Below, piece by piece: positions 33,508 to 41,662 of a stretch of 64,000 bases of DNA. The position numbers and the translations under genes were made by a program. Each line of letters begins with the position of its first letter. Position 1 is the first letter of the stretch. The notes beneath the pieces were generated by a model. That model was given only the letters and a program-made list of their open reading frames with translations. It was not told where the DNA came from and did no database searches. Origin of the DNA: an uncultured Clostridium sp. (GTDB lineage: Bacteria; Bacillota; Clostridia; TANB77; CAG-508); contig CAOJJB010000001.1 of assembly GCA_948436975.1 (NCBI GenBank), positions 14,005 through 78,004 of the forward strand, given 5' to 3'.

Positions 33508-33543
33508 TTATTACCCTCTTTTCTTATATTTCTTTCCTATTGC

Positions 33544-33572
33544 ATTATATAAAAATATATGAAAAAATGCAA
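33544..33572 (-). promoter_or_regulatory. Independent sigma-A-type promoter for gyrA
   Basis: Minus strand TTGCAT (33572-33567), 17-nt spacer, TATAAT (33549-33544), 36 nt upstream of the gyrA ATG. Confidence 0.6.
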
Positions 33573-33616
33573 GAAAAACGCTAAATTTTTATGTGTTTTT
33601 TCCTTTTATTTTTAAT

Positions 33617-34330
33617 CTATATTTTTTGTGCTAACTCCATTTCTAAACTACTAATATTAAAATTGTTTCCATTATTTTTTATTAAATTTTGAATATTTTC
33701 AATTTTTCTAGATTTATCTATTACTGTTTCTAAAGGTACTATTTTATTTAAATTATTTTTTATGTTCTTATAGCATTTTTCCATTAATTCTAAATCTTTT
33801 TTATTATATGCTATATCCCAATTTTCACAATATTGCTCTAATTTCTCAACTGCTTTTAATTGTCTTGTTAATGTTTCTTCTATATTATTACTTATAGAAT
33901 TTATTATTGTATTTTTACCATTTTTTAACATATATGATGTGGATTTATTTATTAAATTCTTATTAGTTGCTAATTTTATACTATAATCTAACAATTCTGA
34001 AATATTATCTAATATACCTCCTTTTTTTACCGCAAGTTGTATTTGAGATATATTTTCAAAATTTCCTGTTATTATTCCCATGATACTTTTTCCTGTATTT
34101 ATACTAGAATTTATTACTTGCTTTATTCCTTCTGAAAAACCATTTTCTAATATTGCATTTTTTACATCTATTATTTGATCTTCAATAATATCTGGTAATA
34201 GAGCTTTTAATCCTATATCTATTGCTGAATTTATTGTTTTTCCTAAATTACTTTGCAAAAAATTTTGTTGCAATTCAATTAGTTTGTTATTTTTCATTTC
34301 TATATTATTTTCTAAAATCATATCATTCAT
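33617..34330 (-). CDS. Hypothetical all-helical soluble protein, last gene of the VirB4-like operon
   Basis: 237 aa, no TM segment or signal peptide, helical heptad-like composition; SD AAAGGA 8 nt upstream; 35-nt gap to the upstream gene. Confidence 0.55.
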   Translation of the reverse strand: MNDMILENNIEMKNNKLIELQQNFLQSNLGKTINSAIDIGLKALLPDIIEDQIIDVKNAILENGFSEGIKQVINSSINTGKSIMGIITGNFENISQIQLAVKKGGILDNISELLDYSIKLATNKNLINKSTSYMLKNGKNTIINSISNNIEETLTRQLKAVEKLEQYCENWDIAYNKKDLELMEKCYKNIKNNLNKIVPLETVIDKSRKIENIQNLIKNNGNNFNISSLEMELAQKI

Positions 34331-34365
34331 ATTTATTATCCTTTCACTTATTTTTTTATTTTAAT

Positions 34366-35610
34366 TTATAATTTTTCATATATTTTTTTATATTCGTCAT
34401 CAAAAATTAAATTATTCAAATTTTTATTAATAAACAAATTATATTTTTCATTATAATTAATATTTCCAAATAACTCATATTCAAAAAATATTTCTTTTAT
34501 AATATTTTTTGAAATATGATACTGATTTAATTTATTAAATAATAATTTAATTTTTTCATTTTCTATATTCCAATCTTTTTTATAAATTTCTAAAATTTTT
34601 TTCGCCTTTTTAATTTCTGATAAATTAGACTCTAATAAAAAAATTATTTTATTAGATAAATTTAAAATTCTTTCGATATAATTTAATTCAATATTAGAAG
34701 ATATATCTAATATTATAAAATCAAAGCTTTCTTTTATTTCACAAAAAAAATCGTTTAATTTATATAGTTCAACTTTATGTATTTTTGTTAATATTGAATC
34801 AAGTCCACACATTATGGAAAAATTATTACTAATATTATTTATTAAATAAACTAAATTATCTATATTAGTATTTTTATTACTATTTTTTAATCCTAATATG
34901 TATTTGATACTATTATTATTTATATCAAAATCTATTAATAAAACTCTTTTATTTTGTTGTTCTATATATTTAGATAAAATTAAAGAAACTATGCTTTTAC
35001 CAACTCCATAATTTCCTGATATAGTAATAATTTTATTATTAATAATATTGTTTTTATATTTTAAATCTAAATATTCCATATTTTTTTCAAATTTCTTTCC
35101 TACACTTTTATAATTTTCTTTAATTAATTTATTGTTTTTTTTTAATATTTTATTTTTATTTAAACAATCTTTTTTATTATAATTATTTAATTTATTATTT
35201 AAAATAAATTCTTTAAAATCCTTTATTTCATTAGTAATTTCGATTTTATTTTTTTCACTATTTATACAAAAATTATTTAAAAAAATATCATAATTATTTT
35301 GATTTAAATAATATATTTTATAAATATTTTTACTATTTAAAAAACTTTCTAAATATTCATTTTTTTCTTTTAAAAAAACTATTATTTCTATATTTTCTTT
35401 TTTATTTAAAATATTATTTATTAATATTTTAAAATCATATTCTATTGGTAAATTATTACTTAAAATTATTACATTAATATCTTCTTTTTCTTCTAAAATT
35501 TCTATTATTCCGTCTTGATATTGTATATCTTGTCCAATTACATCACAAATACCATATTGTCTAATTTTATTATTTAAGTATGGATCACCAATTGCTGTTA
35601 TTATTTTCAA
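34366..35610 (-). CDS. Atypical ParA/MinD/TadZ(CpaE)-like ATPase with N-terminal pseudo-receiver-like domain
   Basis: C-terminal P-loop ITISGNYGVGKSIVSL (Asn where MinD/ParA have the signature Lys) and VLLIDFDINNNS. The N-terminal ~100 aa has an alternating beta/alpha CheY-like pattern, but INVIILSNNLP replaces the phospho-acceptor Asp. TTG start with GGAGGG SD; TTGA overlap with the VirB4-like stop. Confidence 0.6.
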   Translation of the reverse strand: MKIITAIGDPYLNNKIRQYGICDVIGQDIQYQDGIIEILEEKEDINVIILSNNLPIEYDFKILINNILNKKENIEIIVFLKEKNEYLESFLNSKNIYKIYYLNQNNYDIFLNNFCINSEKNKIEITNEIKDFKEFILNNKLNNYNKKDCLNKNKILKKNNKLIKENYKSVGKKFEKNMEYLDLKYKNNIINNKIITISGNYGVGKSIVSLILSKYIEQQNKRVLLIDFDINNNSIKYILGLKNSNKNTNIDNLVYLINNISNNFSIMCGLDSILTKIHKVELYKLNDFFCEIKESFDFIILDISSNIELNYIERILNLSNKIIFLLESNLSEIKKAKKILEIYKKDWNIENEKIKLLFNKLNQYHISKNIIKEIFFEYELFGNINYNEKYNLFINKNLNNLIFDDEYKKIYEKL

Positions 35611-40223: not shown

Positions 40224-40224
40224 T

Positions 40225-40923
40225 TTAATTTATTTTTTCAATTTTATAGCCTATTCCCCATATTACTTTTAAATATTTAGGATCTTTTGGATTTATTTCA
40301 ATTTTCTCCCTTATATGTCTTATATGCACTGCAATTATATTCTCAGCAGCATAAGCTTCATCATCCCAAATATTTTGATATATTTGTTCAATTGAAAAAA
40401 CTATTCCTTTATTTTTAGTTAAAAATTTTAAAATATTATATTCTGTTGGTGTTAACTTTACTTCATTTCCTTCTACTACTACTTTTTTTAAATTATCATC
40501 TATTATAAGTTCCCCTGTTTTATATATATTCTGATTATCTTCATTTTCAAAATTTCCAAACTTTGTATATCTTCTTATTCCTGAATTTACTCTAGCTATT
40601 AATTCTAAAGGATTAAATGGTTTTGTTACATAATCATCAGCTCCAAGATTTAATCCTTTTATTTTATCTTCATCTTCTGATTTAGCTGAAAGCATTATAA
40701 CAGGAATTGATGTTTTTTTTCTAATTTCATTTAAAGTATCTATTCCATCTTTTTTGGGCATCATTATATCTAATATAACTAATTGAACTGTATTATTTTT
40801 TAAAACATCCAAAGCTTCTTCTCCATCATAAGATTTTAATACATTATATCCTTCCTTAGTTAAATAAATTTCAATTGCTTTTACTATTTCTTTGTCATCA
40901 TCACAAACTAAAATATTATACAT
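40225..40923 (-). CDS. OmpR-family response regulator
   Basis: Receiver (ILVCDDD...VILDIMMPKKDG...K) plus winged-helix output (LTPTEYNILKFL...IWGIGYKI); stop 1 nt from the kinase start. Confidence 0.9.
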   Translation of the reverse strand: MYNILVCDDDKEIVKAIEIYLTKEGYNVLKSYDGEEALDVLKNNTVQLVILDIMMPKKDGIDTLNEIRKKTSIPVIMLSAKSEDEDKIKGLNLGADDYVTKPFNPLELIARVNSGIRRYTKFGNFENEDNQNIYKTGELIIDDNLKKVVVEGNEVKLTPTEYNILKFLTKNKGIVFSIEQIYQNIWDDEAYAAENIIAVHIRHIREKIEINPKDPKYLKVIWGIGYKIEKIN

Positions 40924-41195
40924 TTTTTAACTCCTATCTTTAAAAAATAATTATTATGAAAATTATTATATCAATTTTTTTATTATTTTTAAAGTATTTA
41001 TATTATAACAAAAGATTATTAAGAAAAAATAGAGAATTTATTAAGAAATTATTAATTTAATATATTAGTTATTGTAAAACATTTTAGATATAAAATTTCC
41101 AAATTTTTCTATAAAATTTTTTGAATATTTTTTTTAAAATTAGTCATAATAATATTATAAAATTTATATTAGCCTAACTTAGATATAATTTTTAT

Positions 41196-41223
41196 TAATA
41201 AGTTATTTATAAATAACTTATTA
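41196..41223. repeat. Perfect 28-bp palindrome in the gyrB / response-regulator spacer
   Basis: TAATAAGTTATTTATAAATAACTTATTA reads identically on both strands (checked by hand). Confidence 0.8.
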
Positions 41224-41662
41224 CTGATAATTATTTCGAGTAAAGATATAATTTATTGAATGAAATCCATTTAGTAAATTATGTCGGTCACAAAGAGTAT
41301 ATTATGTGCTTGATAGTTCTTTAACTTAACAATTTTTTTCTAATATAAATAAAGGATTTGAAAAGTATGTAATATATTTGAAGTTATGATTATTCTTTTA
41401 TTCAAAAGTGGTTATTTATAATCCTTTTTAGGACGAATATAGCTATTTCGAGTGGATTTATAGTCTAGCAACTGATTAGTATATGTGGTATATGGCTTAC
41501 TTGTATAGTAATATACATTAGGTCAGACTACTATGTATATTAGTTTTAGCTGAAAGTTAATATAAGTTTTATCATGATAAATGCCATAAAGTGTATTCTT
41601 TATGGCATTATCAATTTTATTCAGTTTAATTTATATTTGTTAAATTTTATATAAAATAGTAT

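Follow-up and report, generated by a model that had tools for sequence, protein, structure and literature searches.

Organization of the gyrB-gyrA interval

The DNA analyzed here, a stretch of 64 kb from an uncultured Clostridium sp. (contig CAOJJB010000001.1), hereafter called the window, is a chromosome origin region with 22-24% G+C and a change in the sign of the GC skew near 47-48 kb, and this report deals with the interval that separates gyrB from gyrA in it. On the minus strand the order reads dnaA, dnaN, recF, remB, gyrB, a gap, the genes for a response regulator, a histidine kinase, the N-terminal part of VirB4 (VirB4-N), its C-terminal part (VirB4-C), a ParA/MinD-like protein and a helical protein, and finally gyrA (Table 1). 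Gene identities within the interval were checked by Pfam, NCBIfam and PDB searches, and precomputed Pfam domains of the identical genes at the related locus L001 were HATPase_c, DNA_gyraseB, Toprim and DNA_gyraseB_C for gyrB and DNA_topoisoIV and DNA_gyraseA_C for gyrA. The original prediction, made from the letters of the window, had described gyrB and gyrA as separated by about 8.1 kb containing six co-directional genes and a "740-bp noncoding spacer". The distance (33508-41662, i.e. 8155 bp) and the six co-directional genes are borne out by the layout of open reading frames (ORFs), but the supposed spacer proved to be a gap of 739 bp that carries a conserved structured RNA gene on the opposite strand.

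Table 1. Features of the gyrB-gyrA interval and its surroundings. Coordinates are positions in the window; promoters and terminators are predicted; aa, amino acids.
Feature	Coordinates	Strand	Description
Type IV coupling protein gene, frameshifted	24886..26611	plus	Pfam TraG-D_C, TrwB_AAD_bind
Three small membrane-protein genes	26608..28123	plus	pilin-like 109 aa, 292 aa, PrgI/VirB3-like 93 aa
dnaD	28256-29209	plus	
dnaI	29249-30274	plus	
Hairpin terminator of gyrA	31034-31057		
gyrA	31075..33507	minus	810 aa ORF
gyrA promoter	33544..33572	minus	TTGCAT (33572-33567), 17-nt spacer, TATAAT (33549-33544)
All-helical protein	33617..34330	minus	237 aa, conserved
MinD/ParA-type ATPase	34366..35610	minus	extra N-terminal domain of about 105 aa, receiver-like by eye
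VirB4 C-terminal ATPase part (VirB4-C)	35607..37316	minus	569 aa
VirB4 N-terminal part (VirB4-N)	37363..37941	minus	192 aa, separate ORF, probable ATA start
Split-virB4 operon promoter	37972..38000	minus	TTGACT, 17-nt spacer, TAATAT
Membrane histidine kinase, partner of the response regulator	38088..40223	minus	Pfam HisKA, HATPase_c
OmpR/VanR-like response regulator	40225..40923	minus	Pfam Response_reg, Trans_reg_C
Gap between gyrB and response regulator	40924-41662		739 bp
RNA-gene promoter	41121..41150	plus	TTGAAT, 18-nt spacer, CATAAT
Structured noncoding RNA gene	41157..41622	plus	about 465 nt; closing helix and twelve further helices
Covarying hairpin between gyrB and RNA gene	41580..41611		terminator-like on the plus strand
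gyrB	41663..43591	minus	642 aa ORF; final gene of the dnaA-dnaN-recF-remB-gyrB run
remB	43608-43853	minus	from ORF layout
dnaA	46460-47806	minus	from ORF layout

A structured RNA gene opposite to gyrB

About 450-560 nt of the gap are conserved, in a single copy per locus, at 71 related loci (BLASTN; nhmmer expectation values (E) of 1e-52 to 1e-160), and at some of these the element lies upstream of virB4-N with gyrB not adjacent. Folding on the gyrB strand gave only 17 pairs and A-C mismatches outnumbered G-U pairs there, and therefore the opposite strand was examined and then confirmed. The RNAalifold consensus reached -187 kcal/mol on the plus strand versus -63 kcal/mol on the minus strand, and the 149 pairs of the plus-strand fold contained 2312 G-U cells versus 108 A-C cells; G-U accounts for about a quarter of the paired cells and A-C for about 1%. 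The consensus of an independent alignment of 28 sequences (A4), which was compared with 500 shuffles, comprised 129 pairs in 13 helices, with 94.5% of the cells paired (81.3% when shuffled), 94 pairs with compensatory changes (48.3 when shuffled) and a covariation score of 0.420 (0.186 when shuffled), and for each of the last three measures 0 of the 500 shuffles were as high. When the 3' partners were slid by 1-3 columns as a control, 36-45% of the cells were paired. The closing helix is formed by 41157-41173 pairing with 41556-41572.

Both hexamer blocks of the predicted RNA-gene promoter are conserved in alignments of relatives and its spacer is variable, and the -10 block ends 6-7 nt ahead of the closing helix in all sequences fitting a strict pattern (38/38). 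At the other end of the element, the stem sequence of the hairpin varies and its pairing is retained in nearly all relatives, and a T-rich tail follows it on the RNA strand in 38 of 68 relatives. This hairpin is likely to be the terminator of the RNA and possibly also serves as terminator of gyrB. The gap element is a structured RNA gene of the plus strand, predicted to be transcribed independently of its neighbors. Before a long gap in a very A+T-rich genome is labeled a noncoding spacer, conservation should be checked on both strands.

Rfam searches gave no relevant match to the RNA at E <= 1 on 19 kb, none at E <= 10 for the 631-nt region alone (including the RNase P, tmRNA, 6S and SRP models), and none at gathering score on six homologous loci. 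No covariance-model match to OLE, ROOL, GOLLD, raiA or any other Rfam 15 family was obtained, ARAGORN detected no tmRNA, and the RNA gene had no BLASTN match in plasmid and phage collections. RNase P was considered for its size and closing helix and was rejected, as the GGAAAGUCC motif was absent on reading the consensus and no covariance-model match was found. In two rabbit-gut species (L013 6232-6393 and L014 6231-6392) a clean deletion covers spacer positions of about 85-607, and both retain the hairpin, the response-regulator/kinase pair and virB4 despite the deletion of the RNA body.

Conservation and age of the arrangement

Relatives were collected by a scan of one genome per species in which at least 542 stretches matched, and the best 80 loci were kept; fractions are given for loci with room, i.e. 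those with enough sequence on the side or sides concerned. Among these species-representative loci, 60 of 66 have gyrB upstream and 42 of 50 have gyrA downstream, and the order gyrB, split virB4, gyrA is kept in 39 of the 46 with room on both sides, the gyrB-gyrA gap ranging from 3.7 to 13.6 kb across the clade. Synteny persists where DnaA identity drops to 57-67%, and for the distant group identities are 64% for DnaA, 70% for the VirB4 C-part, 73% for DnaN, 59% for RecF and 50% for DnaD and DnaI. One locus is from Candidatus Scatovivens, which is placed by GTDB in TANB77/CAG-508 (PMC13106387).

With the order kept in 39/46 species loci the arrangement is ancestral to a broad clade, and the view of the interval as an accessory insertion does not hold. 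Where the original prediction had spoken of an "old or domesticated insertion", the block is indeed old, vertically inherited and not fresh, but it is layered and extends past gyrA instead of being a single insertion. That prediction had also said that it would fail if the arrangement were ancestral in the whole clade and the inserted genes had known housekeeping roles; the arrangement is ancestral clade-wide, and no housekeeping role is known for the genes. Its statement that a flanking recombinase is absent agrees with the Pfam scan, in which no recombinase domain was found among the window ORFs scanned. Remnants of target duplications, for which it had pointed to both ends of the interval, were searched for there together with direct repeats, and only chance A+T-rich repeats were found.

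We consider it probable, at roughly 0.7, that the gyrB-gyrA interval is an ancient, vertically inherited block of four layers, characteristic of a large clade of low-G+C, uncultured gut Clostridia including CAG-508/TANB77, and not an accessory insertion. The first layer would be the structured RNA of ~465 nt on the opposite strand, with its own sigma-70-type promoter and with an end hairpin that faces the gyrB end and probably terminates both transcripts. The second would be a VanRS-like two-component system, which presumably entered the block between the RNA gene and the following operon in this sub-lineage only. As third layer, a self-promoted operon would encode a two-polypeptide VirB4, the MinD/ParA-type ATPase and the helical protein, and together with a convergent operon beyond gyrA it would represent a gene set that derives from a Gram-positive type IV secretion system and has become fixed in the chromosome. 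The fourth layer would be gyrA under its own conserved promoter. We infer that the secretion-derived genes of this block form a working envelope machine that serves a host function and not the transfer of a mobile element.

Several species depart from this layout. In a second species group (L006, L025, L026, L028, L030, L032-L036) gyrB is not upstream; at L006 4539-9974 the RNA and virB4 are preceded by a second gene of the coupling-protein type (526 aa), by ORFs of 115 and 235 aa and by the gene for a membrane protein with DUF6056 (474 aa), and the ParA-like gene and gyrA come after virB4. The content of the junction where the helical-protein gene meets gyrA varies (L008 13681-16313, L013 13967-15184, L024 8076-9338, L039 14176-15759): several species have extra ORFs of 403-420 aa without Pfam domain there, and one species carries a 527-aa AAA_15/AbiEii-like ATPase.

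The split virB4 operon

VirB4-N corresponds to positions 1-170 of the 752-position CD1110-family model NF045971 (E 1e-8) and VirB4-C to positions 192-731 (E 3.9e-77), so that the N-terminal and the C-terminal P-loop ATPase domains of this VirB4/TraE-type family are both covered. VirB4-C also matches PDB 4AG5, the VirB4 C-terminal domain (E 1.5e-42), and its translation reads GTSGAGKS at Walker A and DEIW at Walker B. As the score against NF045971 is 260.2 bits, below the cutoff of 325, and two ORFs are present instead of a single polypeptide, this VirB4 is regarded as a divergent relative and not as an equivalog. Across the clade VirB4-C is 68-91% identical, and more than 100 clusters of close homologues (71-100% identity) come from uncultured Clostridia. 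The two-ORF layout recurs across the loci mapped, indicating that the split of VirB4 is old. The nearest 50%-identity cluster representatives (44-52% identity) are mostly C-part-only proteins as well. The closest full-length VirB4 among these cluster representatives is 44% identical, and the closest plasmid VirB4 34.6%.

Gene callers give a shortened VirB4-N of 158 aa or 141 aa. Most likely the start is the ATA at 37941 (37939-37941), which predicts a protein of 192 aa instead of 158 aa: relatives conserve, in frame, the 34 residues that precede the first canonical start, and the ATA codon sits 9 nt after AGGAG. Near relatives have ATA or ATT at this site, and distant relatives have ATG or TTG (L008-L024). 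Relatives without the response-regulator/kinase pair likewise have a promoter-like sequence, TTGACA-17-TAATAT, upstream of the N-terminal virB4 ORF. In the virB4 leader of these pair-less relatives, the hairpin GGGGCGTGAAA...TTTCACGTC is conserved between promoter and ribosome-binding site, with a T-run behind it (L010 about 9090-9190, with equivalent positions in L016, L008 and L023); it looks like an attenuator and is absent in the window.

The ParA-like protein scores above the Pfam cutoffs for CbiA (42.9 bits), ParA (37.0 bits) and AAA_31 (33.1 bits), and MinD structures match its residues 194-366. On reading the translation, its Walker A motif is SGNYGVGKS, the signature lysine of KGGxGK[ST] being replaced; a canonical Soj/Spo0J pair is encoded elsewhere in the window (55439-57081). 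At L003 9931-11110, and also in L004, L005 and L018, two ORFs make up the ParA-like gene, one of 126 aa for the N-terminal part and one of 251-274 aa for the ATPase. The helical protein has 1681 homologues at E <= 1e-5, and those among the matches listed (n=120) are 189-255 aa long and without Pfam domain. Its AlphaFold model, based on 33 sequences, has a mean predicted local distance difference test score (pLDDT) of 65.

A conserved putative promoter for gyrA

For gyrA the original prediction had proposed a near-consensus promoter of its own, TTGCAT-17-TATAAT, and with it transcription decoupled from gyrB. The sequence is present, but its -35 hexamer agrees with TTGACA at just 3 of 6 positions, and as promoter-like matches occur in the DNA of the window at chance level (123 found versus 133.9 expected) the match in this single sequence is no evidence. 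The gyrA promoter is supported instead by its conservation, since TTGNNN, 17-18 nt and TATAAT recur in 58/58 homologous gyrA upstream regions examined, at a distance of ~43-100 nt, most commonly ~65 nt, from the gyrA start codon. In many relatives a hairpin with a T-run lies just upstream of this promoter. Thus gyrA is predicted to be transcribed from its own conserved promoter, and this promoter, together with the hairpin and T-run ahead of it in many relatives, makes the proposed uncoupling of gyrA from gyrB probable across the clade. Unlike in those relatives, no obvious hairpin with T-run is seen in the window at 33573-33616, between the helical-protein gene and the gyrA promoter, and therefore read-through from the virB4 operon into gyrA is possible in the window species.

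As the two genes are 8155 bp apart, with a hairpin behind gyrB, predicted promoters in between and a separate one for gyrA, they would not form a gyrBA operon. Many bacteria have gyrA and gyrB as separate genes and tolerate this well (PMC8359277), and their separation in itself is unremarkable.

The convergent operon beyond gyrA and the secretion gene set

The genes for the coupling protein, the pilin-like protein and the 292-aa and 93-aa proteins form, together with dnaD and dnaI, an operon that converges on gyrA, and its gene order is conserved across the clade. Throughout the clade the coupling protein is retained, with 61-89% identity. In the window species it is encoded in two pieces, one of 151 aa with membrane segments and Walker A and one of 443 aa with the remainder, and the 443-aa product is also called in two further assemblies of the same species (L001, L002). 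The other species checked read through the frameshift site in one frame. A conserved split or programmed frameshift of the coupling protein was rejected, as the break occurs in none of them.

The T4SS_pilin hit of the pilin-like protein lies below the Pfam cutoff (21.3 versus 26.6 bits), and searches of the 93-aa, 292-aa, 109-aa and 237-aa proteins against Pfam, NCBIfam and PHROGs gave nothing above threshold. When profiles made from the clade were compared with a gene cluster on a Vescimonas plasmid, a PrgI-VirB4 fusion (20.6 bits), a 236-aa gene (29.7 bits) and a 'fimbrial protein' (17.3 bits) were matched. Since the counterparts are contiguous in this plasmid cluster, both gene sets around gyrA are taken to be parts of one secretion set. 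Pfam detected no relaxase and no integrase/recombinase domain among the ORFs scanned in the 64-kb window, and neither operon contains a domain of a cell-wall hydrolase (VirB1-like) or of a VirB8-like component. Of the features expected of a self-transmissible element, relaxase and integrase domains were not found among the window ORFs scanned and direct repeats were not found at the ends of the interval, the distribution among related genomes is not patchy (same position in 39 of 46 species loci), and the coupling protein of the window species is not intact.

The split of VirB4 into two ORFs, the frameshift in the coupling protein of the window species, the lack of relaxase, cell-wall hydrolase and integrase domains among the ORFs scanned, and the variable cargo that other species have between the gene for the helical protein and gyrA might all be expected of a decaying remnant of an integrative conjugative element that is becoming a pseudogene cluster. 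We regard this as very improbable, as the two-ORF VirB4 recurs clade-wide with a C-part whose conservation is similar to that of DnaN and above that of DnaA, the coupling protein is intact across the frameshift site in the other species checked, and the position is fixed in 39/46 species loci with no flanking repeats found.

Alternatively, the secretion genes could be a working system for conjugation or DNA export whose relaxase and transfer origin (oriT) are located elsewhere, or the element after gyrB could act at the level of DNA, as a single-strand signal or an origin of transfer. ParA-like ATPases help to recruit substrates in Agrobacterium (VirC1) and in the gonococcal island systems, and by analogy the ParA-like gene would suit such a role, as would the clade-wide retention of the coupling protein and the location of the element at the head of the virB4 operon. 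The absence of a relaxase domain among the ORFs scanned and the broken coupling protein of the window species argue against conjugation, and a DNA element would explain neither the preponderance of G-U over A-C among paired cells, which indicates an RNA of one particular strand, nor a conserved promoter just before the closing helix with a hairpin at the opposite end, so that this alternative appears quite unlikely.

Linkage of the RNA to gyrB and virB4

Because loci fetched by means of VirB4 bias the linkage, metagenome contigs were scanned with a 60-nt RNA pattern, which resulted in 120 hits, all of which (120/120) also match the element profile. In this RNA-anchored scan virB4-N was divergent on the promoter side of the RNA in 75 of 86 loci, and on its terminator side gyrB was the convergent neighbor in 94 of the 99 loci with room; the matches include a lineage with 38% G+C and 61% GyrB identity. 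In loci of the L006 type the RNA stays beside virB4-N though gyrB is not adjacent. As the head-to-head arrangement with virB4-N persists in lineages lacking an adjacent gyrB, the RNA may act together with the secretion-derived machine. The further proposal that it is a new class of large structured noncoding RNA working physically with the fixed split-VirB4 machine, for instance as assembly scaffold, as ribonucleoprotein partner or as cargo that the machine handles, is speculative and at present improbable. Searches of the literature on TANB77 and type IV secretion, and on large noncoding RNAs in connection with such secretion in Clostridia, yielded nothing relevant.

As the main alternative, the RNA could be part of the housekeeping neighborhood of the origin, either as a regulator of gyrB by convergent transcription or as an unrecognized housekeeping RNA, with the adjacency to virB4 being incidental. 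The convergent gyrB in 94/99 RNA-anchored loci, also found in the distant lineage with 38% G+C, is in line with this, as is the retention of virB4 without the RNA in L013 and L014. On the other hand, the RNA stops short of gyrB without overlapping it, lies directly upstream of virB4-N in L006-type loci where gyrB is not adjacent, and matches no RNase P, tmRNA, 6S or SRP model even at E <= 10, and on balance we consider this explanation unlikely, though it deserves to be kept in mind.

Several observations weigh against an ancient block in which the RNA and a secretion-derived machine belong together. In the metagenome sample the linkage of the RNA to gyrB is at least as tight as that to virB4, and L013 and L014 lack RNA body and promoter, yet have kept virB4, and therefore the RNA is not indispensable for keeping the virB4 genes. 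On reading the sequence, one extra base at about 25322-25325 splits the coupling protein in the window species, and therefore the machine may be impaired there. The homology of the pilin-like, 292-aa and PrgI-like proteins depends on weak profile scores (17-30 bits). The ParA-like protein diverges fast (28-52% identity across the clade, sometimes undetected), as does the helical protein (39-79% identity), for whose predicted fold Foldseek found nothing below E 0.25 in PDB. Promoters and terminators are inferred from sequence only, every locus comes from metagenome assemblies, and the taxonomic name of the clade depends on one named genome.

If the RNA and the machine do belong together, the gyrB-RNA-virB4 block would constitute a cell-envelope system that defines the clade of CAG-508/TANB77 gut Clostridia. 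Genes of secretion systems usually travel as cargo of mobile elements. In the clade described here, a VirB4 ATPase is fixed next to the replication origin in several dozen uncultured gut species at the least and probably in several hundred, and its conservation, about equal to that of the DNA polymerase clamp, points to an undescribed host function in a lineage with almost no cultured members. To our knowledge, few large structured bacterial RNAs have been described, each of them a starting point for new biology.

The two-component system and a further match in the window

The response regulator scores 273.8 bits on the VanR model, below its cutoff of 350 bits, and the kinase 156.2 bits on the VanS model, below 400 bits, and they are therefore regarded as a generic OmpR-family pair for which VanRS is the nearest model. 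Only 9 of the 80 species loci have the pair, suggesting that it is a later addition in a sub-lineage. An inverted repeat (38003-38060) follows the kinase gene. Antisense within dnaA, on the plus strand at 47285-47365, a sub-threshold Rfam match to AsdA, the antisense RNA of dnaA mRNA, was observed (33.1 bits versus a gathering score of 52; E 0.0018).

Comparison with known systems

The arrangement resembles the gyrBA operon beside oriC of Listeria, Staphylococcus aureus and Mycobacterium ('Group 3' of PMC8359277) in that dnaA, dnaN and recF lie just upstream of gyrB and gyrA follows on the same strand at a short distance downstream, near the replication origin. It differs in the gap between gyrB and gyrA, 8.2 kb here and 3.7-13.6 kb clade-wide, and in that a hairpin, an RNA gene on the opposite strand and two or three transcription units would intervene, with gyrA being self-promoted.

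OLE, ROOL, GOLLD and raiA are large structured bacterial RNAs whose functions are unknown or have recently begun to emerge (PMC10861870). The RNA described here is similar to them in its length of several hundred nt, its many covariation-supported helices, its restriction to a lineage, its conserved gene neighborhood and its predicted stand-alone promoter and terminator. For none of these classes do we know of a report of a neighborhood with gyrB and a split virB4.

With Gram-positive conjugative systems of the type of CD1110 (VirB4) and CD1115 (VirD4) the locus shares a VirB4 with homology over the whole family model and the presence of a coupling protein; it differs from them in that the ORFs scanned yielded no domain of a relaxase, a hydrolase or an integrase and in that its chromosomal position is fixed, not patchy, across the sampled species. 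The order of the candidate pilin-like, 236-aa-like and PrgI-like genes agrees with that on plasmid pMM35_02 of Vescimonas fastidiosa, but VirB4 of the plasmid is fused to PrgI, whereas VirB4 is encoded here by two ORFs. Compared with plasmid systems in general, VirB4 here is at most 34.6% identical to any plasmid VirB4 and the genes are distributed over two convergent operons around gyrA, dnaD and dnaI.

ComB of Helicobacter pylori, which serves DNA uptake, and the island of Neisseria gonorrhoeae, which serves DNA secretion and includes ParA/ParB, are chromosomal, non-conjugative derivatives of type IV secretion systems; ComB is not known to have a coupling protein and the gonococcal system has a relaxase. 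By analogy, the locus would resemble both in keeping secretion genes on the chromosome for a host function and in the association with a ParA-type ATPase. Neither of them is known to be embedded in the gene cluster of the origin or paired with a large RNA. What is unusual in the gut Clostridia studied here is a secretion ATPase that is fixed at the replication origin and conserved like a replication protein, and a large RNA belonging to no known family that lies head-to-head with VirB4.

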